Made by a program: the position numbers and the translations under genes. The notes below the pieces were generated by a model that had not been told where the DNA came from, made no database searches, and saw nothing but the letters and a program-made list of their open reading frames with translations. Shown here piece after piece: positions 8,076 to 32,301 of a stretch of 64,000 nt of DNA (position 1 is the first letter of the stretch; each line of letters begins with the position of its first letter). This DNA comes from Blastocatellia bacterium (GTDB lineage Bacteria; Acidobacteriota; Blastocatellia; UBA7656): positions 640,001 to 704,000 of the forward strand of contig CAVXWP010000009.1 of NCBI GenBank assembly GCA_963765495.1, written 5' to 3'.

Positions 8076-8148
8076 GGGCGCTTAGCTCAGTCGGTAGAGC
8101 ACTGTCTTCACACGGCAGGGGTCACTGGTTCGAGTCCAGTAGCGCCCA
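8076..8148 (+). tRNA. tRNA-Val(CAC), no encoded CCA
   Basis: GGGCGCTTAGCTCAGTCGGTAGAGCA; anticodon arm CTGTC-TTCACAC-GGCAG; T-loop GGTTCGAGTCC; acceptor end AGCGCCCA. Confidence 0.97.
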
Positions 8149-8155
8149 CTTTTAG
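8107..8155 (+). repeat. attL core
   Basis: TTCACACGGCAGGGGTCACTGGTTCGAGTCCAGTAGCGCCCACTTTTAG, identical to 31925-31973. Confidence 0.95.
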
Positions 8156-8169
8156 AATCAATTAATTAC

Positions 8170-8769: not shown

Positions 8770-8997
8770 TCAAGTCTTTCTGCTCGTCGCACTTGCATCA
8801 ATCCACATCAAGAGCATGCCCGGTTGTACCTGTAGGGTCTGACATAACCGCTCAAGCGTATCTAATGCGGCCATCTTTGCTGTGCCGTTCCAGATGCGGT
8901 ATATGCTCGCGTAGGGTATGCCTGATCTGTCAGCCAAGTCTTTAGCGTTCCTGATGCCCTTCGCCTCTGCCACTTCCTGAACATTCCATTTCATCAT
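8770..8997 (-). CDS. Xre/Cro-like HTH transcriptional regulator
   Basis: LADRSGIPYASIYRIWNG...LDTLERLCQTLQVQPGML; RBS GGAGG upstream. Confidence 0.88.
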   Translation of the reverse strand: MMKWNVQEVAEAKGIRNAKDLADRSGIPYASIYRIWNGTAKMAALDTLERLCQTLQVQPGMLLMWIDASATSRKT

Positions 8998-9369: not shown

Positions 9370-9492
9370 ATGAAAGAGCAGCGCACACTTGAGCAAGTCA
9401 AGGCAGGTGACATACCGCAGGTTGAGTTTGAAATGACCGCCGAAGACTTTGACGAATGGTTGCACGAGGATGACCAAGATTATCCGTTCTAA
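9370..9492 (+). CDS. 40-aa acidic peptide ending EDDQDYPF (not in ORF track)
   Basis: RBS CAGGAGG, ATG 9370, TAA 9490-9492; MKEQRTLEQVKAGDIPQVEFEMTAEDFDEWLHEDDQDYPF. Confidence 0.65.
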   Translation: MKEQRTLEQVKAGDIPQVEFEMTAEDFDEWLHEDDQDYPF

Positions 9493-9573
9493 CAGCGAAG
9501 AGGCTAGATGGCTGGAACCCATCTAGCCTCTCGAAACTTCCACCGATTAAACGATGAAAGGATTTACATTCAA

Positions 9574-9867
9574 ATGAAGACTAACACGGCACCGACCGAC
9601 ATTCAATCACTCACGAACGACTTTTACCCGACCGCTTACAGCCTTCAACTACAGGCCGAAGAATTAGCCGCAGCCGATGACTTTGAAGGCTACAGCGAAT
9701 GGAGCGAAGACATTGAAGCCATCCGATTGGCAGAAGAGGAAGCCAAAGCATGGGAAGGCGCGAAGCCGGTTGTTTTGGATGATGGCGCGCAAGTGCTTAT
9801 CAAGCGCGAATGCGATCATACAGAGTGCTGGGTCCAAGTGCAAGAGATCGGAGAATTGGAGGCATAG
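9574..9867 (+). CDS. Small acidic hypothetical protein (97 aa)
   Basis: GAAAGGA RBS-like sequence upstream; about 23 D/E versus 6 K/R; follows a 13-bp perfect hairpin at 9499-9531. Confidence 0.65.
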   Translation: MKTNTAPTDIQSLTNDFYPTAYSLQLQAEELAAADDFEGYSEWSEDIEAIRLAEEEAKAWEGAKPVVLDDGAQVLIKRECDHTECWVQVQEIGELEA

Positions 9868-9871
9868 AGAT

Positions 9872-10154
9872 ATGAATCTGATTTGTTTTTCTGCAATCAA
9901 GGCAATCGGGCCGGGTGATGTATCAATTTGCATCACCCGGTTTACCGCGCCAAGGAGGCAAGGAAATTGCGCCCGCTCACAAAGATTGCCATGTTGCTTA
10001 TCATTCTAACTCATGGCGACTTCCGCGCATTCGGCCGCATTGGCGGTCAGATCACGCGACAACAAAGCGATGGGCTTTCAATCTTCGCAATGTCCGAACC
10101 CATCCCGCTCACGAAATAAACCGGGCATTCTACACAGCCCATTATTCACACTGA
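9872..10154 (+). pseudogene. Small HNH-like protein broken by several frameshifts
   Basis: Stitched frames read M-N-L-I-C-x-x-C...LHHPVYRAKGGKEIAPAHKDCHVAYH..GDFRAFGRIGGQ...KRWAFNLRNV. Confidence 0.5.
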
Positions 10155-10201
10155 CCAAGCCGGGGCAGGCAATGAGCTTGCCCCACATTGGAGGAAAGAC
10201 C

Positions 10202-10561
10202 ATGAATATTCATCAGATACCAGCAGCAATTGAGAGCAAACAACAGGAGTTGATAACCGACAGTGAAGACCTCGCAATTGTGCGAGAGCAGATCAAAGAT
10301 GCAGAGCTTGAGGCAATCTGCGAAGCGTCCGACGCTCGCAACGAAGACGGAAAGCAAATGTACACAAACGATAAACAACGCGAGCGCGCCGCCCGGCAGA
10401 GCATGAGAGCAGTCGCGCAGTACCAGAGGGACCGTGAGACAGCCCGAATACTTGAGCGCCGGGTTGCCTTGCTCACAGCAGAGATCGAGCGAATGCGCCG
10501 AGATTATCGCATCGCATTGATTGACTACGAACGCGTGCAATTAGGCCAGCGCGCAGCATGA
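10202..10561 (+). CDS. Coiled-coil hypothetical protein
   Basis: RBS GGAGG then ATG 10202; helical charged sequence with YTNDKQR. Confidence 0.7.
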   Translation: MNIHQIPAAIESKQQELITDSEDLAIVREQIKDAELEAICEASDARNEDGKQMYTNDKQRERAARQSMRAVAQYQRDRETARILERRVALLTAEIERMRRDYRIALIDYERVQLGQRAA

Positions 10562-10568
10562 GGTATAA

Positions 10569-10605
10569 CGGGCCGGTTTCAACAAGTAGACCGGCCCGCC
10601 CTTTT
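10569..10605 (+). terminator. Hairpin terminator of early operon
   Basis: CGGGCCGGT...ACCGGCCCG followed by CCCTTTT. Confidence 0.55.
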
Positions 10606-10727: not shown

Positions 10728-10973
10728 CTACAGATGGAGTCTGATGATTTCCGATAGTGTGCCGATCACAATCCAGACACTTCTCAAGGATGAAACTCCA
10801 CTATCTTCATCCTTATTGATTGGCTGACGACTTGGAGATGTCCCTGGCAGATTATGACCATCATCAGCTACGGCCACAGATTGAAAACTTACGCCTTGAT
10901 TGCTCATAGGCGTAGAAAGGAGGGGAACCGACAACGTGCAGCACAGAGCCGCTATCAAGAATTTTGCTTTCAT
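10728..10973 (-). CDS. 81-aa secreted/membrane peptide: signal peptide, short polar core, C-terminal hydrophobic helix
   Basis: RBS AGAGGT, ATG 10973; MKAKFLIAALCCTLSVPLL...AVA/DDGHNLPGT...VWIVIGTLSEIIRLHL. Confidence 0.65.
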   Translation of the reverse strand: MKAKFLIAALCCTLSVPLLSTPMSNQGVSFQSVAVADDGHNLPGTSPSRQPINKDEDSGVSSLRSVWIVIGTLSEIIRLHL

Positions 10974-11844
10974 ACTTACCTCTGTTAGTAGATTTTCGAG
11001 CTTATCTCTGCAAGACAGAGAGAAGCTGTTGCGTGGGTTGGTTTCTCTCGGAGACACAGCCTATGCACTCCGGCAATGGGACAGGCTGGAAGATGTTGGG
11101 AAAGCACTTGTCAGCCTGCCCCTGCCGGATTCAAAAAAGGCAATTGGATATTACTTCCAAGGACTCGCGGCCAATCCTAAAGCCAAAGGAGATAACCGCA
11201 AAGCCTGCTCGCTATTTGCTCGTGTTATAGACCAAGCCCCGCTTTACTTCCGAGCTAAAGCATTGGTTTCTATCGGCTGCCAAAATATTGCTGCGGGCAA
11301 CTGGCAGCAAGGCTATAACTACAATATCCAAGCTGCGTCATTAGCCACTCAATCGGAAGACTGGCTGACAGTAATCAATGCTCATAGCGCCATAGCAATC
11401 TTGCATTCGTTTGAAGGCGATCATCGCCGCGCCCTTGATAAATTGGAATCGCTATGGCCAATGGTGCGAGCGATCCACCGCGCCAATCCTGTTGCATACC
11501 TGGACTATCTCAACTCATTAGCCATTGAACTCAGCGAAGTAGGCCACACCGATCAGGCCCGCAACGCCATAAACATCGCTCTCAGTTCGTCTTTAGCCGT
11601 TCTCTATCCAGAATGGCACGAAACCGCCCGCGAGATTGAGCAAATCGCATCAGCGCCGGTTATTGTCATAGTTCCTGATCTTCAGCCGGAAACTCAATCT
11701 AAGCCGGAAAAAGTTCTTATCATCCTGCCTGTAGATACTTCGTCTCAGGCATCACCAAAGCTACTGCCCATAGCCTTTGCGATAGTCAGCATATCTGTGC
11801 TGATCTGTAAGAGTCGCCCTGCTCGCGCTCCACCTCTATTTTGA
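10936..11844 (+). CDS. TPR-like helical-repeat protein with hydrophobic tail and terminal RAPP motif
   Basis: RBS AAAGGAGG then GTG 10936; TPR-like repeats (AKALVSIG, AILHSFEGDHRRAL, YLNSLAIELSEVGHTDQA); ends SRPARAPPLF. Confidence 0.75.
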   Translation: MQHRAAIKNFAFILTSVSRFSSLSLQDREKLLRGLVSLGDTAYALRQWDRLEDVGKALVSLPLPDSKKAIGYYFQGLAANPKAKGDNRKACSLFARVIDQAPLYFRAKALVSIGCQNIAAGNWQQGYNYNIQAASLATQSEDWLTVINAHSAIAILHSFEGDHRRALDKLESLWPMVRAIHRANPVAYLDYLNSLAIELSEVGHTDQARNAINIALSSSLAVLYPEWHETAREIEQIASAPVIVIVPDLQPETQSKPEKVLIILPVDTSSQASPKLLPIAFAIVSISVLICKSRPARAPPLF

Positions 11845-12008
11845 AACTTCCTCAAAAATCTAGCCGGTAATCCTGACCGGGCATACCTACACTTATCCCC
11901 GGATAAATATAGGTGTGCTTGATTGTAGAACCGGAGCGGGCCAGTTCCCTGGAAAGTTCTTGACCCGCTCCATCTGTCATAACCGCCAATTAAGGAGGAA
12001 ACGACTGT

Positions 12009-12467
12009 ATGAGTATAGTGGATAAACTTACTTTTGAAGAAACTGACTTGAGCAAATCTCTGTTGGAAACTAAATGTATAGCTGCGCTGGTTGCTCAAAT
12101 TATCGGGGATGAACCCGCAGCTAGTATTCTTACTGCGCCGGGTGATGAGCTTGCGGATTTGCTAATGACAATTCGCAGAGGTATCACTGGCTCACCCGAA
12201 GAAATCCAACGAGCAGTCACAACAATAGATGAGGCTATCGAGTTATGCTTTCTGCATTCTGAGGCATACACGGCCGCATTTGAGCTATTCAAGCTTGAGA
12301 AATCAGGCGAGTTAGTAAGCGACACAACGGCCAGAAGCATTATAAACGAGGCCATAGAACAAGTCGAAATCCACAGCGAAGTATCAGCGAGCAAGAGCGA
12401 ACAGAGCAAGATTGAATCTTTTGAACAGCACGAAGATCACAAAGAAAGGCAAAAAGGGCAAAATTGA
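12009..12467 (+). CDS. Acidic helical hypothetical protein
   Basis: Strong RBS AAGGAGG; 152-aa ORF followed by a long hairpin. Confidence 0.75.
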   Translation: MSIVDKLTFEETDLSKSLLETKCIAALVAQIIGDEPAASILTAPGDELADLLMTIRRGITGSPEEIQRAVTTIDEAIELCFLHSEAYTAAFELFKLEKSGELVSDTTARSIINEAIEQVEIHSEVSASKSEQSKIESFEQHEDHKERQKGQN

Positions 12468-12481
12468 ATCGAGCAGAAAGA

Positions 12482-12522
12482 AATGATCATGGGGCAAGAA
12501 TTGTTCTTGCCCCATTATCATT
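12482..12522. terminator. Long hairpin between convergent units
   Basis: ATGGGGCAAGAA-TTG-TTCTTGCCCCAT with outer AATGAT/ATCATT. Confidence 0.6.
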
Positions 12523-12766: not shown

Positions 12767-14119
12767 CTATTTTTTCTTACCACAACCACCATCAAGACTA
12801 TCTCGCCATTGTCTGTGCTGCCATGAGAGTTTGCCTTTGTTGAATCTGACTTGCCAAAGATGGAATTGATCCTCTTGATTCTCGTGCTCCAAATCCCAAA
12901 AAGAATGAAGTCCTCCATCCTTCCAAAATTCGTAAACTCCTGCCATGCCATTTACGAACTCTTTCTGCTTAGCTAAGTTTTCAAATTGCTTTCCTATAGC
13001 CTCACGAGAAATGTCCGGGGAGGCTTTGGATAAAACTTGCTTTGCAATCAAAATGGCATCGTGTCCATATGCATAAAAAGAAGGTATATCAGCGTAAGAA
13101 CTATTTTCACGGCTAATGTTATAATAGAAATCTCGCGGTGCACCGAATGGAAATACTCCCCATACACATTCTGCATCATTACCTGCGTCATTAATAAACT
13201 CTTGAGTAGTGCTACCATCACTAACTATTACGATAGGTTTTCCCACAGGAAGTCTCAAACGCTTACGTAGCCTAGTAATTGTGCGAACTAATTGAATAGC
13301 TTTATCCGTCATACCAAAAAGGAGAATGGCATCCAGAGGCGTTTTTTTGTTTAAGAGCATTTGTTCCATCATGTAATCCAAATTGGCTTCATCAAAATCT
13401 TTAATTCTAGGCATGCAGCGGGTTCTTTTAGCTCCTTTCAGGGCTTTGTCAAACTCCCAACAAAGATTTTCTGAATATGCAGCATTATCCTTGTCCTTTA
13501 GAATTAGCAGATTGCATTCTTTGGTGGCGAAAGTATCCCCAAGCCCATTTACTATTTGCGCAGCTTGTTGGTAATTAGAAGGGGGAAGTCGAAGGATAGG
13601 GTAGTTCCAGTTGTCCTTGTTAGGTTTAGTCAAGTCTGTGCTTGTCGCTGCAATTAAGATAACAGGCATTTTATACCGATTGTAAACTGTGAGGGCTTTG
13701 GTCGCAACTTCGCTTTCGACAAAGCCCATCACCATAATATAATTCTCGTCTCTGCAAATGGTTTCAGCAATCTGCTGAGACATCTCTGGTACGTCCTTAT
13801 CGTCGTGTTGGATAAACTGAATATTAATATTCTTGCCCTTCAGTTCATTCAATAAGCCCGAATCTATTGCTGCATCAATACCGGCCTTAATCCCTGCCCA
13901 TGTCTGTTCTTCTTTACCTTTTACAGGGCCGACAAGTGCAATTTTGTATTCACTTAATTTTGGCGTGGGTTTTATGATCTCCCAAACCTTCACTCCGAGT
14001 ACAATGATTGAAGCAGCCAATATGAGAAAACTGAGTAAAGCAATGATCAGTGCCCAAGGCCGACGCTCCTTATATGCTCGCCTTGATTGCTCAAAATAGT
14101 CTTTTAGTTTATCTATCAT
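12767..14119 (-). CDS. Membrane-anchored type I periplasmic-binding-fold protein (LivJ/K-like)
   Basis: N-terminal TM; KIALVGP, DDKDVPE..A, MGFVESEVA, ATSTDLT, LRLPPSNYQQA, AYGHDA motifs. Confidence 0.8.
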   Translation of the reverse strand: MIDKLKDYFEQSRRAYKERRPWALIIALLSFLILAASIIVLGVKVWEIIKPTPKLSEYKIALVGPVKGKEEQTWAGIKAGIDAAIDSGLLNELKGKNINIQFIQHDDKDVPEMSQQIAETICRDENYIMVMGFVESEVATKALTVYNRYKMPVILIAATSTDLTKPNKDNWNYPILRLPPSNYQQAAQIVNGLGDTFATKECNLLILKDKDNAAYSENLCWEFDKALKGAKRTRCMPRIKDFDEANLDYMMEQMLLNKKTPLDAILLFGMTDKAIQLVRTITRLRKRLRLPVGKPIVIVSDGSTTQEFINDAGNDAECVWGVFPFGAPRDFYYNISRENSSYADIPSFYAYGHDAILIAKQVLSKASPDISREAIGKQFENLAKQKEFVNGMAGVYEFWKDGGLHSFWDLEHENQEDQFHLWQVRFNKGKLSWQHRQWRDSLDGGCGKKK

Positions 14120-14233
14120 CTATGCAACCCGATTGGCACAACTATATGTAGTTTCTACCGCAATAGATGAGCTAAGACAAGAGCAGACTCTTCCGAAACT
14201 TCTGAGTAAGGGCGCTTTTGATACTAAAGACTG

Positions 14234-14404
14234 CTAATTTGCTTGACGAGGCTCTTTCCTATTTGGCAAAACAGCCACGTTCTCTTGTCCAACTGGCAAC
14301 CAGATAACCTTCTTTTCTTTTTCGACAGTTGACTTGCTATTCTCTATTTGGCTACCAGCTTGTTGGCTTTGCTTAATTTTGTCTTCATCTTCTCTTGACA
14401 TCAT
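14234..14404 (-). CDS. 56-aa peptide (not in ORF track)
   Basis: GAGG RBS, ATG 14404, TAG 14236-14234; MMSREDEDKIKQSQQAGSQIENSKSTVEKEKKVIWLPVGQENVAVLPNRKEPRQAN. Confidence 0.5.
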   Translation of the reverse strand: MMSREDEDKIKQSQQAGSQIENSKSTVEKEKKVIWLPVGQENVAVLPNRKEPRQAN

Positions 14405-14562
14405 GAAAACCTCAAAGAAATGTTACTACTTTGTTATAGGAGCCGTAAACTGTCAAACTACAGCGGGTTGCAATCGAATGAAGAGACAAGTATGGGAAAT
14501 GCCTGTATCCGTGCAATATGTTGTTGAATCAATCTACTCACTCGTCTGCAACCCGCTGTAAA

Positions 14563-16140
14563 TTAAGAAACTCCCAAAGCGAAAATTTCCGTTTCAAATT
14601 TCTGGATTAAATTAGTAGGCTTGGCTATATCTCCAAGTATTAGTGAAGCAGTCATCAATTCCTCCATCCTGCGATACCGTTTGTCAAGGGACAAAAGATC
14701 ATTAGTTCTTTCCAAAACTGAATAGGCAACATCAATTGGGCTTACATTTTGCTCCTCCCATAGGGATTCTAAAGTTTTCGGATAACAGTAGAAGAGTGTG
14801 AAGAGGCAATGTGCCATATACAGGAATTCTTTCCACTCAGGCTTTGGAACATACCGGGAGTGGAAGGGAAATAAGTCGGGACGTTGGTCCGCATAATCAT
14901 TCTTCTCGACAATATCAGGCACATCAAATAATAGTCTAGTTCGCAAATTATCGCTCTCTATTAGTGATTGATATGCAGCTTTAGCACCAGTGCGGTTGTA
15001 CAAAGTTAGTGTGTTTAGTCTAACTTCCGCCCCGCTGTTTCGAGCCTTCAATGCCATTCTTAGCGTCTCTACTATATCCCCCCCACAGGAATGAGATGGG
15101 GGACTTATCAGAAAAGCACAGGTCGGCAATATACCAGCTTCAGCACATTGGGTCAATTTATAATCAAGCTGTGTTGAATGTTGCAAAAAACTCTTTTGAA
15201 ACGCCTTTTGAGATGACTTGCCAACAGCATCAACACCTGTAAATACAGAGGAACAGCCAGCCCTGGCCATCCAATTTATGACTTTTGCTGTCAACTGAGG
15301 AAATGTTGCATAACAAGTCCAACTCATATCTAATCGAGCAGCTTCTAGTTCTCGGCAGAATTCAATGGCGGAAGAAGAATTATTCAAAAAATTATCTTCT
15401 ACAAAGAATAGGTGATTAATACCCAGTTTCTTAAGGCGATAAATCTCCTCAAGTTTTGTTTCCACATCGAAATCTCTAAAACCGCTATAGTGTGTGGGGC
15501 TATAACAAAAAGTACATTTATATCTACAACCTCGCCCCCCCTCAAAATTGAAAATTCTCAATGGATTTACTTGGAAATACGGCTTCAAATCAACCAAATC
15601 ATAGTCGATGAAAGGCAATTTGCGAAGTCCTATATTTTGCAATTGGCTAGTAAATAGGCTACCTCGACCTTGTAAACCAACTAGCTCTGATACTATATGC
15701 TTTTTGTTCTTAATATGGGCTTCAATTAATTCTTTGAAAGGGGTTTCTCCTTCTCCTTCAATGACGAAATCCACCCAAGGGTATGTGTCCAAGAGGTCGT
15801 TCGCAATGCTAGAGAAATGCGGTCCCCCAAAAACCGTGATGGTGTTTGCCTTCCCTTCTTTTACTAATCGAGCAAGTTCTAACCCTATATGAGAATCAAT
15901 CCCCATCGAAGTGAAGCCATATACATCTGCGTCATGCGCTAGTAATACCTCACTGGCCTTTTGATAAAACGATGAATCCTGAAACTCATCATCAAGGTGA
16001 TAAAGAAGGTTAAAATCCAGAATGCTAACTTCGACGCCCAGATTGCGTGCCACCGTTCCGAGTCTAAGCAACCCTAGTGGTGGACTCAATTCCGTCAAGT
16101 CATAAAGCGATCTGGGAGGATTTACTAAAACAACTTTCAT
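14563..16140 (-). CDS. Cobalamin-binding radical SAM enzyme (class B methyltransferase-like)
   Basis: PPLGL, GGPH and GEGE in the B12-binding domain; GRGCRYKCTFC CxxxCxxC; FVEDNF. Confidence 0.92.
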   Translation of the reverse strand: MKVVLVNPPRSLYDLTELSPPLGLLRLGTVARNLGVEVSILDFNLLYHLDDEFQDSSFYQKASEVLLAHDADVYGFTSMGIDSHIGLELARLVKEGKANTITVFGGPHFSSIANDLLDTYPWVDFVIEGEGETPFKELIEAHIKNKKHIVSELVGLQGRGSLFTSQLQNIGLRKLPFIDYDLVDLKPYFQVNPLRIFNFEGGRGCRYKCTFCYSPTHYSGFRDFDVETKLEEIYRLKKLGINHLFFVEDNFLNNSSSAIEFCRELEAARLDMSWTCYATFPQLTAKVINWMARAGCSSVFTGVDAVGKSSQKAFQKSFLQHSTQLDYKLTQCAEAGILPTCAFLISPPSHSCGGDIVETLRMALKARNSGAEVRLNTLTLYNRTGAKAAYQSLIESDNLRTRLLFDVPDIVEKNDYADQRPDLFPFHSRYVPKPEWKEFLYMAHCLFTLFYCYPKTLESLWEEQNVSPIDVAYSVLERTNDLLSLDKRYRRMEELMTASLILGDIAKPTNLIQKFETEIFALGVS

Positions 16141-16214
16141 AGTATTAGACAGTCTAAGTTTGTTGAAATCCTGGTGGATTGTATCCCACCGTAGTCAACA
16201 TAGCAATAATCCAT
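16137..16214 (-). CDS. 25-aa peptide translationally coupled to the radical SAM gene (not in ORF track)
   Basis: RBS GAAAGGGA, ATG 16214, MDYCYVDYGGIQSTRISTNLDCLIL; TGA overlaps the rSAM ATG (ATGA). Confidence 0.5.
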   Translation of the reverse strand: MDYCYVDYGGIQSTRISTNLDCLIL

Positions 16215-16243
16215 AATTGATCCCTTTCACATAGAATCTTTGT

Positions 16244-16780
16244 TCATTTACTTAATGAGCCGAAATCATCAAGCCTGGCTTCAAGATAACTACGTGTAAG
16301 ATTGCGGTAAGTTGTAGTACCCTTGGCTAACAACCTCAACGCCTCATCAGTAAGTTCCTTCTTTACTATTGCCGGTATACCTGCCGCTAGGAATCATCGC
16401 GGAATTCTTGTGCCCGGCCTGACTACGCTGCCTGCTGCAAGCATGGCTTGTTCTTCCACCACTGTGTTTTCCAGCACAATGGCGCCCATGCCAACAATTG
16501 CGCCTGATTCAATAGTGCAGCCTTCCAGGAGTGCGCCATGCCCAATTGTCACTTCGTCAGCTAATATGGTTGGGTACTCAGGAGAAGTATGGAGTACAGC
16601 ATTGTCTTGAATATTGCTATTGCGGCCTATAGTGATTTTGCCATCATCACCACGCAACACTGCGCCATGCCAAACACTTGAGCCATCGCCAATTACCACG
16701 TCCCCAATTATTACAGCAGTTGGGGCAATGAATACGCCTTTTCCTATTGATGGTCTTTTGCCTTCAAATTCGAAAATCAT
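16244..16780 (-). CDS. Gamma-carbonic anhydrase family (hexapeptide repeat) protein with in-frame TGA at 16394-16396
   Basis: AVLRGD, SNIQDNAVLH, TIGHGALLEGC; the frame continues past TGA as FLAAGIPAIVKKEL...YRNLTRSYL. Confidence 0.85.
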
Positions 16781-17297
16781 ACGCACTCCTTAGTCACTGT
16801 CATTCTTAGCCTAGTATGCTTTGTGAGCAACCTTCGATGCAAGGTGAGAGCAAATAGAACTTAAAATCAAAATCGAACTGCTACAAACGCTTCAAAAGGT
16901 GCTTGGACCCTCTTGTGGGTATAGTATACGGTCAGCAATTTCCGACATTCAAGAATTAAGGTAACTCACTCAACCAGCAAACAATGCGAAATGCCCCTGA
17001 AGAATCCTATAGTCACTATTGATAGACGCATCAGCACACAGATTTTTTGCAAGTATTATTGTCTGGCGGACTCTATAGAGGCTTCAAAAAAGTATGAGAT
17101 GGGAAGGGCCGTTAGAAGATGGAAGGTTGTATTTACCCTGCTCAGATTCTTTGGTATGATGCGGAAGTCCTCGGTGTGTATTATCTCAGGGTATTCACAA
17201 CCTTCCGGTAATCGAGGCTTATTCAGCCACCATATCGGTGTATTGTGCAGATTTTGAAGGAAGCAGCTTACGGCCTGCCAGAGGCAAAAGTAAAGAA

Positions 17298-30524: not shown

Positions 30525-31720
30525 TCAGCGGATTATTTCCTTTGGTTTTTGTGTTTCCTCTTTTGAATTGAACTCATCGAGTACCGCAGCAGCCCTCTTT
30601 GCAGTCTCTACATTAGCATTCACATAACGATAGGTCGTATTAGCCTGAGTATGCCCGAGAACTCGCCCTACCTCAGACAGAGGGACATGGCCAGATACAA
30701 GCCTTGTGGCGTGCGTGTGGCGCAGGTCGTGAAATCTCAGATCGGGAAGCCCTGCAACTATTCTAGCCTTGCTGAATGCTTTTTTGACGTTTGCTACCCC
30801 AAACACAAAACCATCAGGATTGAGGGGGGAGCTTTCCCACAACGCCTGTAGCTCTTGGGCCAGTCGTGAGGTAATTGCAACTTGGCGCTGCCTCATGGTC
30901 TTGGTATTGAATGCCTGTATGTTGACAAGCCCGTTCTCAAAATCAATATCTGACCATTTGAGCTTGAAAATTTCGCCTCGGCGCATCCCAGTATCCAAAG
31001 CCATGATGACGATGGGCCTTAAATGTGCCTTCGCTCCTGTGCATACAGCCAGCAGTTTTTCTTCTTCATCACGAGTCAATATCCGCTCCCGATGCCTTTC
31101 ATCGCCCGGATTGATGAGAGAGTTACCCATCACAAACGGGTTCTTGAGAATCCAGCCGTTTTGCTACGGCAACATTGAAGACTCGGCGAAGCAGGCTCAA
31201 CTCTTTATGAACGGTTCCGATGGATCTTTGTCGTTCTGTTTGATTTCCTGGCTTATCCGTTCCGCGTGTATTTTTCCCAAATACAACAGGAGTTTTAAGC
31301 CTGATGGATTTGAAGCGTTCCAAATCGCCATGCGTGATGGATTTTATTTTCTCCTTCGCAAAATAGTCTGTGAGGATGTTCAGGCGCAGTTGAAGTTCAT
31401 AGCGACTCCTATAGCCCGCAACTTTCCTGCCGTCCACATATTCAGGTTCTACAAGGTAGGTTCGCTGGTAGTAGTCGGCAAGCTGGGCGAATGTCATATT
31501 GGATGCGTCAATCGCCTTCTCTCCCTGTCCTTCGATCTCCCCAAGCATTTTCTTGGCAAGCTCACGCGCCGCTGTCTTCGTATTATCTTCGGGCTTCTGT
31601 AGCCATTGGCGCCGCTTGCCTTGTTTGTCTATAGGTTATGCAAGCAAACCATCGCTTGATCTTTTTGCCGTTTCTGACTTTCCATTTGTAGATCGCCGCA
31701 CCTGTTTTGGGCCTTGCCAT
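30525..31720 (-). CDS. Tyrosine recombinase/integrase; apparent frameshifts near 31600 and 31130-31165
   Basis: TGMRRGEI, FHDLRHT, LGH...TYRY; RBS GGAGG before ATG 31720; adjacent to attR. Confidence 0.92.
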
Positions 31721-31924
31721 AGCATACCTCCTGCATAAAAGTGGGCTTGCGAACCATTGAAGTTTGACAGATTTGGTCAAACAAATGGTCAAACATTGAA
31801 GCCCGACATCAGCAGACAATGAATTGACATCACTAGACAATCATACTTGTAAACGCTCGCAAATAAAAGATTTTCTATACACGAGTAGGCGTTGCTAGAC
31901 ATCGAAACACAAGGTATTCCTGCA

Positions 31925-31973
31925 TTCACACGGCAGGGGTCACTGGTTCGAGTCCAGTAGCGCCCACTTTTAG
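31925..31973 (+). repeat. attR core (displaced tRNA-Val 3' half)
   Basis: Identical to 8107-8155. Confidence 0.95.
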
Positions 31974-32301
31974 GATCAACAAATTACAGCCGCCCTTAGA
32001 GGTGGCTTTTCTTATGTTGTCATTCATATAGTCAATCATTTTACATTTCACCTCTTAATCCGGGATTGGCTTAGAAAGATGGCTATCTTGTTGTGAGATA
32101 TGTGTTCGCCAATCCTTCTCTTCACTTGAAATTCAGCCTTTCTATGTCAACGCGCGTCGAGCGGGCGGTCAGGGGTCGGTGGCGACATTTACGAAGAAAC
32201 TCATTCTGTTTCTCACAATTTCCTCCTTTCACTGAATACCGGTCAGTGACAGTTGACTGGCTATGGGATTTGCTAGGATGACGGGCGATCAGATGTTGCG
32301 A

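Follow-up and report, generated by a model that had tools for sequence, protein, structure and literature searches.

A head-to-head overlapping tetratricopeptide-repeat gene and small exported-protein gene: a candidate regulatory cassette of one Blastocatellia-type acidobacterial family

We analyzed a 64,000-nucleotide (nt) stretch of DNA from a Blastocatellia bacterium (assembly GCA_963765495.1, contig CAVXWP010000009.1, positions 640,001 to 704,000 of the forward strand; hereafter the window), in which a gene for a tetratricopeptide repeat (TPR) protein and a gene for a small protein with a signal peptide overlap at their 5' ends. The head-to-head overlap is real, and the conserved pair is well supported as the core of a regulatory cassette. 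With a probability of roughly 55%, the locus is a diverged, element-borne copy of such a cassette, specific to one Blastocatellia-type acidobacterial family. This reading is carried by the conservation of the pair among paralogs, by selection on the small gene, by the fold of the TPR protein and by the swappable outputs attached to it. All positions below are those of the window, counted from its first letter.

The first-pass annotation, made from the letters and a list of open reading frames (ORFs), had described both genes and a 38-nt overlap between them, and the sequence and the ORF list bear out these coordinates. The features of the pair are as follows.

10936..11844, plus strand: TPR-like gene of 302 amino acids (aa), GTG start at 10936, stop at 11842-11844.
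10728..10973, minus strand: small ORF of 81 aa, ATG at 10973-10971, stop at 10730-10728.
10728..10973, minus strand, family role of the same ORF: diverged member of an exported small-protein family, with a signal peptide, an AVA/DDGH site, no Cys core and a weak C-terminal anchor.
10936..10973, both genes: 38-nt overlap of the two coding starts, read from the sequence.
About 11008-11655, plus strand: TPR solenoid (residues about 25-240), followed by a disordered tail with a hydrophobic stretch.

The Shine-Dalgarno (SD) sequence of the TPR gene is AAAGGAGG at 10916-10923, 12 nt ahead of the GTG, and that of the small ORF is AGAGGT (plus-strand ACCTCT at 10977-10982), at a family-like spacing of about 4 nt. 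The SD and start codon of each gene fall inside the coding sequence of the partner, and any two full transcripts are complementary across both translation starts, as had been claimed from the sequence at first pass. GTG 10936 was taken as the TPR start because the relatives P0002, P0003 and P0005 begin with MQHRA..., like the window protein; a TTG at 10900 was rejected for the same reason. Also rejected were a 109-aa form of the small ORF from GTG 11057, as the family alignment begins at the ATG, and a lipoprotein signal on the small protein, as no lipobox stands ahead of a Cys.

Conservation of the antisense ORF in TPR homologs, on which the first-pass annotation had let its proposal stand or fall, is extensive. 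The TPR protein of the window has four further copies in its own genome; elsewhere in its taxonomic family, 23 of the 24 other genomes contain matches, a single genome holding up to 24 of them. None of 16 genomes from other families of the order or class was matched, nor did the family profile hit any of 150 other genomes sampled across the phylum at E≤1e-20. We took 40 more paralog loci, which brought the set to 55 TPR ORFs, or 53 non-identical ones after two exact duplicates were dropped. A simple rule (a divergent ORF of at least 55 aa with a hydrophobic N-terminus, starting -80 to +160 nt from the TPR start) paired 43 of the 53 automatically, three of these with truncated or degenerate partners, whereas among 80 other long ORFs in these loci it flagged only 4, once three TPR paralogs had been removed from that control. 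Inspection of the ten misses yielded six full-length small ORFs, passed over by the rule where it had misassigned the TPR start or where the TPR gene was broken, two truncated relics and two loci with none. The final tally over the 53 paralogs is thus 46 full-length small genes, five truncated or degenerate and two absent. Each of the four paralogs in the window genome has a divergent upstream ORF overlapping the TPR start, three of them full-length and one degenerate.

The small gene family is under purifying selection. The ratio of nonsynonymous to synonymous substitution rates (dN/dS), computed over codons beyond the overlap only, was 0.14-0.37 in all 16 pairs with a finite dS, out of 22 pairs at 55-99% identity of which the other six were saturated at synonymous sites. 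A profile of the 45 other small proteins ranks the window ORF first among the 835 stop-to-stop ORFs of the window (E 6.8e-4; next, 0.066) and fifth of 68,852 genome-wide, behind three training members and a relic beside another paralog; in the window genome the profile finds only ORFs beside TPR paralogs, as five top matches followed by noise. These results bear on the least attractive account of the locus, namely an artefact in which the small ORF is open by chance and only resembles a gene with a signal peptide. Frames of 81 aa are indeed common locally (7 kb hold 53 ORFs of 40 aa or more), this one has a negative codon score, and single-sequence searches returned no relative of it. Yet homologous ORFs under purifying selection stand in the same place and phase beside 46 of the 53 paralogs, and the profile match falls at exactly the expected site, set against a control rate of 4/80. 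In our view, the family alignment, dN/dS and the profile match already refute this account, to which we give very little credence.

Close relatives of the window copy are scarce. At E≤1e-42, none of 52 other family genomes matched except G001, and none exceeded 39% identity, so that no close ortholog is at hand. A scan of public genomes for the loci of relatives gave three distant loci only, and two metagenome scans and one viral scan for DNA of the closest TPR relatives gave no match. A profile search (A3) of a large protein collection returned at least 11 proteins. Many TPR paralogs lie 300-900 nt from the ends of draft contigs, and two places in G015 scored identically; highly similar repeats of the cassette or of the DNA around it may break the assemblies.

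The small proteins share a distinctive anatomy, with signal peptides judged from charge and hydrophobicity only. In the family alignment (A2), a basic N-terminus and a hydrophobic run, to which long forms add about 17 residues, lead into a conserved (P-F-A-T)-V-A-x-A/G-H-T site. The core motif C-x-C-G-x2-G-C-x-C-D-P-G-E follows, then a variable stretch rich in Ser, Thr, Pro and Asn, and finally (F/L)-D-(F/L)-G-S-G, about 14 hydrophobic residues and a terminal W-x-R-x-R. Residues between the fixed Cys vary across paralogs. Family members are 79-117 aa long, some of them above 100. G-H-T is the likely mature N-terminus, because in a short subfamily (79-87 aa) the A-F-A of the signal runs straight into it. 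At least three Cys in the mature part and a G-[HR]-x after the signal are each found in 44 of the 46 full-length members, a hydrophobic C-terminus in 41 and at least two basic residues among the last six in 40. The window protein begins with MKAK and a 15-residue hydrophobic run, continues with ..SVAVA/DDGHN, so that its A-V-A aligns with the family A-x-A/G-H-T, and can be aligned from signal peptide to C-terminus with in-frame gaps only. The signal peptide and AVA site recognized at first pass thus hold up against the family, while the C-terminal hydrophobic helix described there is weak in this copy. The view of the small protein as a simple propeptide fares worse, since a four-Cys core and a membrane anchor at the C-terminus are conserved in the family and, as read from the alignment, would argue against it.

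This layout of signal peptide, short motif, hydrophobic helix and basic tail resembles that of proteins with C-terminal sorting signals (PEP-CTERM, GlyGly-CTERM, LPXTG). Unlike those, the small proteins match no sorting model in Pfam or NCBIfam, nor any other model there (nine proteins against NCBIfam and four against Pfam, even at E≤10 or E≤1), and no sortase-like gene is linked to the cassette, although no search was aimed at the enzyme. The ESM Atlas gave weak leads only, all below 0.9, with LPXTG-named nearest clusters at 0.84 and PEP-CTERM (35%) at 0.78.

The two genes interlock in a constrained way. Among the 43 automatically paired paralogs, 41 overlap by 14-50 nt, always 2 mod 3, and in a typical cassette the first 5-17 TPR codons face the opening codons of the small gene on the opposite strand; the conserved TPR start M-Q-T-A-A-x-T-S-R-F-L lies antisense to M-R-K-R-L-V-x-A-A-V-C in the small protein. 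A GGAG or GAGG SD precedes 34 of the 46 small genes. TAnAAT occurs upstream of them at -63/-60, -48 or -36/-33 in 21 of 46 cases, compared with 2 of 46 in a control stretch, and the extended form TGnTAnAAT at the same fixed distances in 18, compared with none. In about 40% of copies (those 18), this extended -10 element lies within the TPR reading frame; read on the other strand, the element TGGTAGAAT is the conserved G-F-Y-Q of the N-terminal region of the TPR protein. Head-to-head genes with mutually complementary 5' regions are familiar from divergent overlapping units of the excludon type and from AraC/LysR-type regulator-target pairs. In the cassette, by contrast, it is the coding sequences that overlap, in one phase throughout the paralog family, and conserved residues of one protein are encoded antisense to the -10 element of the partner gene. 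Because each mRNA is complementary to the SD and start codon of the other, the two genes may damp each other, through antisense pairing or transcriptional interference, and the complementary 5' regions would then act in mutual repression.

The larger partner belongs to the TPR superfamily. Pfam TPR_12 falls below threshold for the single window sequence (27.2 < 30.1 bits), whereas the family profile matches consensus TPR proteins at E 1.5e-23. AlphaFold2, run on a 51-row alignment, predicts an all-alpha solenoid of tandem helix-turn-helix repeats at residues 25-240, with a predicted local distance difference test score (pLDDT) above 95, and a disordered tail at 241-302 (mean pLDDT 85.7). The best Foldseek matches of the model are generic peptide-binding TPR proteins, led by LGN (E 5e-4; template-modeling [TM] score, 0.43-0.54); kinesin light chain also ranks ahead of Rap, with the pLS20 Rap-Phr structure (6t46) at rank 40 (TM 0.48) and RapH at rank 48. 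As the first-pass annotation had stated, the window protein carries no helix-turn-helix (HTH) domain in a Pfam scan. It is present in a collection of 5.8 billion proteins, in which its closest relatives (P0002-P0006) share 41-56% identity with it. This window-type subfamily (P0001-P0006) lacks the N-terminal stretch of about 25 residues that elsewhere holds the -10 element of the small gene. PHROGs and PADLOC gave no match for the TPR protein, the small protein or the product of the third gene described next.

What lies at and beyond the C-terminus of the TPR protein gives the cassette its likely output. In the window, the relevant features are these.

11824..11835, plus strand: R-A-P-P codons, two codons before the stop, a candidate ribosome-arrest motif read from the sequence.
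11845..12008, plus strand: structured spacer of 164 nt, whose predicted fold pairs the SD of the next gene with the RAPP-coding stretch.
12009..12467, plus strand: third gene, 152 aa, acidic and all-helical, of no known family (Pfam, PHROG).
12489-12515, both strands: bidirectional hairpin terminator, from a terminator scan.

The window protein ends in ...R-P-A-R-A-P-P-L-F. RAPP stands 2-16 residues from the stop in 20 of the 53 TPR paralogs, and by hand count HAPP, HGPP, RSPP, RPPP or RAPT variants occur in about ten more, which brings the layout to about 30 of 53. Genes of this kind are followed, 30-370 nt downstream, by a co-directional ORF, except at L038 and L043, where none was found under the rule applied (100 aa, 450 nt). 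In the work of Fujiwara et al. 2025 (PMC12992588), RAPP and RGPP are described as robust ribosome-arrest motifs and RSPP and HGPP as arrest-prone, and such motifs are located close to the C-terminal ends of small secretory proteins encoded ahead of a variety of genes. The window TPR gene agrees with this class (ApdA, ApdP, ApcA, CruR and the RAPP/RGPP upstream ORFs of that study) in the position of its motif, in the next gene 164 nt on, and in a downstream SD that, by prediction, is paired with RNA that would lie under a stalled ribosome. In the RNA fold predicted for 11815-12030 (-62.6 kcal/mol, z -2.67), the AAGGAGG of the third gene pairs with the RAPP-coding CUCCACCUCU. The hydrophobic stretch just before RAPP would still sit in the exit tunnel at the arrest point. 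The cassette departs from the known arrest peptides, which are small secretory or membrane monitors of localization or copper, in that its motif ends a cytoplasmic TPR protein of about 300-350 aa (302 aa in the window, with a folded domain and no N-terminal signal), in that the downstream genes encode transcription factors or uncharacterized helical proteins, and in that arrest itself is a prediction here.

The downstream genes are of several types. A helical family of about 150 aa is found at 11 loci and a 216-aa family on element-type copies. The third protein of the window, poorly modeled by AlphaFold2 (pLDDT 60), is related to the third gene products of L004 and L015 and links weakly to the common family of about 150 aa (hhalign 77%, E 2e-5, 50 columns). 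At L039, the downstream gene is an AraC-type regulator (HTH_18, 4.3e-29), while at L046 the TPR protein is itself fused to such a domain (HTH_18, 1.4e-24). The fused HTH (L046:2560-3717, minus strand) and the separate gene after a RAPP-ending TPR gene (L039:3907-4425, plus strand) are close relatives (phmmer 2e-41), forming a fused/split pair that ties the TPR protein to the downstream gene. At L026 and L036, within a four-locus cluster, the downstream genes carry HTH_Crp_2 (1e-14 and 2e-13). Crp/FNR-like third genes lie 49-200 nt after the TPR stop at L026, L031, L036 and L047; the small proteins of these cassettes have four to seven Cys and a different C-terminus, with no or one basic residue. 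The remaining TPR proteins have a C-terminal helical extension, often with a convergent XRE-type gene. At nine loci these convergent genes form one BLAST cluster, eight of them with a 4-nt 3' overlap, and HTH_3 was seen in both of those checked (L006 and L009). A 494-aa fusion of an XRE-type HTH with an ImmA/IrrE-type metallopeptidase (L028:988-2469, minus strand) follows a TPR paralog that has no small gene. BLAST clustering of neighbors revealed no other conserved gene beside the cassettes.

This repeated, interchangeable link to DNA-binding proteins is the main reason to regard the TPR protein as a regulatory or sensor subunit. The regulatory idea of the first-pass annotation gains strength from the AraC, Crp-like and XRE links; the C-terminal RAPP motif and the downstream gene had been overlooked there. 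We propose a switch in three parts that would act on both transcription and translation. The small gene would give a Sec-exported protein, made up of a signal, an A-x-A/G-H-T site, a Cys core, a stalk and a C-terminal anchor with a basic end. The divergent gene would give a cytoplasmic TPR protein, the sensing or regulatory subunit, which likely senses something and controls a transcription factor, either directly or through arrest-gated translation. The output would be the RAPP tail plus a downstream gene (AraC, Crp-like or helical protein) whose SD is masked by the RAPP-coding RNA, with a fused AraC HTH, or a C-terminal helical extension plus a convergent XRE gene, as alternatives. The small exported protein would be the cognate partner, most likely as the divergently controlled product, and may feed back. 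In the window copy, the RAPP tail and the downstream gene are the likely output, and the active arm probably runs from the TPR-RAPP protein to the third gene.

The first-pass annotation had likened the pair to RRNPPA peptide communication systems (Rap-Phr, NprR-NprX, PlcR-PapR, Rgg-SHP, AimR-AimP). On such an account the exported protein would be cleaved, and a released peptide (e.g., G-H-T... with the four-Cys core) would build up outside, re-enter the cell, bind the TPR groove and switch the output (release of arrest, or a transcription factor), on the element perhaps a lysis/lysogeny- or excision-type decision. The study of Bernard et al. 2023 (PMC10075063) gives a five-point signature for such systems, namely a propeptide of 10-100 aa, a Sec signal, a receptor of 250-500 aa, TPRs and adjacency. 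The window pair fits this signature formally, with a Sec signal that is a candidate one. Its ORF has 81 aa, with a basic N-terminus, a 15-residue hydrophobic run and small-residue sites that may serve Sec- or PptAB-dependent secretion (judged from charge and hydrophobicity only), and it overlaps by 38 nt (range allowed, -60 to 400 bp) a TPR protein of 302 aa. Further likenesses are the many paralogous cognate pairs per genome with variable residues between fixed Cys, a fold shared with peptide-binding TPR proteins (LGN best, Rap-Phr well behind), the ties of TPR genes to AraC, Crp-like and XRE proteins, and the copies beside cI-like repressors on related mobile elements. Like Rap, the window TPR protein has no DNA-binding domain. 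Divergent orientation is also known from some Rgg-SHP pairs.

Specific kinship is missing all the same, as NprR (E 0.045) and RapJ (E 0.068) score no better than generic TPR proteins, so that the comparison with RRNPP systems survives as a formal signature and not as kinship of sequence or fold. The order of domains is reversed: RRNPP receptors have an N-terminal HTH or effector domain and C-terminal TPRs, whereas the cassette TPRs lie near the N-terminus and the interchangeable outputs (RAPP and downstream gene, AraC, XRE partner) are C-terminal. The small proteins of 79-117 aa keep a Cys-rich core and a membrane anchor, unlike the propeptides of 21-50 aa with short linear mature peptides reported in the same study (PMC10075063), and the start codons of the cassette overlap, with a promoter embedded in the frame of the partner. 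The host is an acidobacterium rather than a Firmicute and, as the first-pass annotation had rightly suspected, a diderm (the phylum is Acidobacteriota). A peptide would have to pass two barriers on its way out and again on its way in, and the conserved neighbors of the cassette include no importer. The window copy has no Cys core altogether. A co-fold of the TPR and small proteins of L005, each with its alignment, gave no answer (score 0.00) and was counted neither for nor against binding. Peptide communication of this kind is thus unlikely, if a good deal more plausible than a chance frame. Literature searches found no report joining Acidobacteria with RRNPP systems.

Another possibility, suggested by analogy with RAPP peptides that respond to secretion or copper, is that the cassette monitors the envelope. 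The exported G-H-T/four-Cys protein would report periplasmic copper, thiol-redox state or export and sorting capacity, and RAPP arrest would adjust a regulator. The conserved N-terminal Gly-His and the four Cys would indeed be periplasmic, the C-terminal motif, helix and basic tail look like a sorting signal (a weak ESM Atlas lead only), and PMC12992588 describes an enrichment of RAPP/RGPP peptides ahead of copper-related, TonB, DsbA and thioredoxin genes, with CruR responding to copper. Against it, the arrest motif belongs to the cytoplasmic TPR protein rather than to the exported protein, the conserved neighbors include no metal, Dsb or Sec gene, no NCBIfam or Pfam sorting signal is matched, metal binding is deduced from residues only, and the window copy has no Cys to offer. 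We consider such a monitor improbable, and we return to the sensor cassette with its divergently controlled partner and to the element on which the window copy resides.

8076..8149, plus strand: tRNA-Val (CAC), the integration site of the element, found by ARAGORN.
About 8107-8156, plus strand: attL repeat, overlapping the 3' part of tRNA-Val.
8770..8997, minus strand: cI/Cro-type HTH gene of 75 aa, repressor-like and divergent from the early operon (Pfam HTH_26, 1.3e-13; PHROG transcriptional regulator/repressor families).
9370..10561, plus strand: early operon of three ORFs (40, 119 and 182 aa) from the ORF list, with codon scores of 0.08-0.44.
30525..31840, minus strand: tyrosine integrase region of two or three consecutive ORFs (202, 141 and 85 aa), with Pfam Phage_integrase (3.1e-30) on 30525-31133.
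31926..31975, plus strand: attR, a repeat of the 3' part of tRNA-Val, found as a sequence repeat.

The element extends over about 8150-31975 and contains an integrase; the tRNA gene borders it on one side, and on the other the 3' part of this gene is directly repeated. The 23-nt 3' end of tRNA-Val recurs exactly at 31945-31967 (zero occurrences expected by chance), within a direct repeat about 50 nt long in all, and the GC content of the element is 0.41-0.51, compared with 0.51-0.57 in the flanks. The integrase reading frame is interrupted near 31130, by either a frameshift that has made it a pseudogene or an assembly error, which makes mobility doubtful. As the first-pass annotation had noted, the pair follows the repressor and the early operon. 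The ORFs of this operon match no Pfam or PHROG family; the first of them (40 aa, 9370-9492), with a strong SD and, at 0.44 per codon, a codon-usage score above that of every other ORF scored, is probably genuine. The operon is followed at 10570-10605 by a GC-rich hairpin with TTTT, which was read from the sequence and is unlisted by the terminator scan. The cassette would be a separate transcription unit downstream of the operon, running through the third gene to the hairpin at 12489-12515. Other genes of the element include DUF3631, a DNA methylase and a GmrSD-type gene. A low-GC block (0.41) at 12767-16786 seems to be cargo without a connection to the cassette; on its minus strand it encodes a membrane-anchored periplasmic-binding-like protein, a B12-binding radical SAM enzyme and a hexapeptide-repeat protein. 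The cassettes L012 and L015 adjoin homologs of the window repressor, and therefore one sub-lineage travels with related elements; at L012 the repressor and small genes point the same way and the TPR gene runs divergently from them. The earlier placement of the window pair on a mobile element is thus correct, but the family as a whole is mainly chromosomal and multi-copy and not a mobile-element device.

Several observations weigh against reading the window locus as a diverged copy of a regulatory cassette, some of them at the level of the family. Predicted pairing of the downstream SD with the stalled-ribosome zone, seen in 15 of the 19 RAPP-type paralogs folded, comes without a shuffle control. 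Only 18-21 of the 46 small genes have a recognizable -10 element, and for the TPR gene itself no shared -10-like element was seen upstream, a consensus scan there giving matches at chance level. Pairwise identities of small and TPR proteins correlate (r 0.57 over 37 pairs, with 0 of 2000 permutations as high), and the two have the same nearest neighbor in 19 of 37 pairs, but co-duplication alone would give this correlation. Seven of the 53 TPR genes have no intact small partner, and conversely a broken TPR gene (p4) stands beside an intact small gene, so that the two can persist apart. The census, moreover, covers loci other than those of P0002-P0006, the closest relatives of the window TPR protein, and so speaks less directly to this variant. 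Others concern the window copy. Its mature part has no Cys, the sole such case among the 46, and its best 13-residue Kyte-Doolittle mean at the C-terminal anchor is 1.8, with a Glu inside. Neither TAnAAT nor TGnTAnAAT occurs at the family positions, a consensus scan gives no minus-strand promoter, and the codon-usage score is -0.07 per codon, as in spurious ORFs. A word-indexed search of the 5.8-billion-protein collection gave no candidate for the small ORF, and phmmer against 1.84 billion representatives gave only two long unrelated proteins; blank single-sequence searches say little, because the ORF is uncalled even in its own genome.

Two copies in the window genome illustrate how such pairs may end. 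In L054 (C9:145.6-146.7 kb) the TPR gene is intact and the small gene is a 71-aa relic, while in L055 (C8:215.6-216.7 kb) a TAA interrupts the TPR gene beside an intact small gene of 117 aa; decay can strike either partner.

The window small ORF could itself be such a remnant, dead while only the arm from TPR-RAPP to the third gene works, in which case the 330-nt upstream region would be the promoter and leader of the TPR gene. This is a serious contender, although we hold it to be somewhat short of even odds. Besides the missing Cys, an anchor of the weakest class, the missing promoter, the codon score and the absence from protein collections, it is favored by the lack, in the P0001-P0006 subfamily, of the stretch that would hold the -10 element, by similar decay in copies p3, L030b, L035 and L043, and by the interrupted integrase, as the element itself may be decaying. 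What speaks for a living gene is a frame that is open end to end and alignable to the family, with the start codon, a GAGG SD at family spacing, the n- and h-regions and the A-x-A/G-H site all kept. Its 68 non-overlapping codons stay open in only 529 of 20,000 shuffles (2.6%). The frame is kept while the Cys core and canonical promoter are lost, and this atypical copy may be decaying. It is precisely the lack of Cys, the weak anchor, the missing -10 element, the negative codon score and the uncalled ORF that hold us to only a modest lean toward a small gene that is still functional. We retain the diverged, element-borne cassette as the preferred reading.

A more daring elaboration of that reading would make the cassette a new signaling device of diderm bacteria. 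A cue would bind the folded TPR domain while its own ribosome pauses at RAPP, and so set how long the downstream SD stays open and hence the amount of transcription factor made. The cue could be a processed fragment or the un-exported precursor of the Cys-rich protein. The overlap would make production and reception of the signal exclusive in each cell, and element copies would eavesdrop or escape. We offer it as a long shot.

The combination of features is, we believe, undescribed, because the literature searches were negative and no Pfam, NCBIfam, PHROG or PADLOC model covers the small and third proteins. For RAPP translation arrest together with tetratricopeptide, no hit was relevant by its title or the start of its abstract; this search did not extend to the supplements of PMC12992588, where RAPP ORFs of some 300 aa may be tabulated.

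If the proposed reading holds, one acidobacterial family would have expanded a compact switch to as many as two dozen copies per genome. This switch would join a TPR sensor whose outputs can be exchanged (nascent-chain arrest, AraC, Crp-like, XRE), a Cys-rich partner that is exported and a conserved head-to-head, dual-coding overlap with a promoter inside an ORF, a combination not found in the literature searched. Control by RAPP-type arrest would extend from small secretion monitors to a full-size cytoplasmic sensor protein. The overlap also carries a caution for motif-based inference, since a promoter can shape conserved amino acids of the partner (G-F-Y-Q from TGGTAGAAT), and gene callers miss the small gene of the window and possibly others like it. 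Acidobacteria are a phylum with poorly known regulation, and for them the cassette would provide a testable candidate for protein- or peptide-based signaling.

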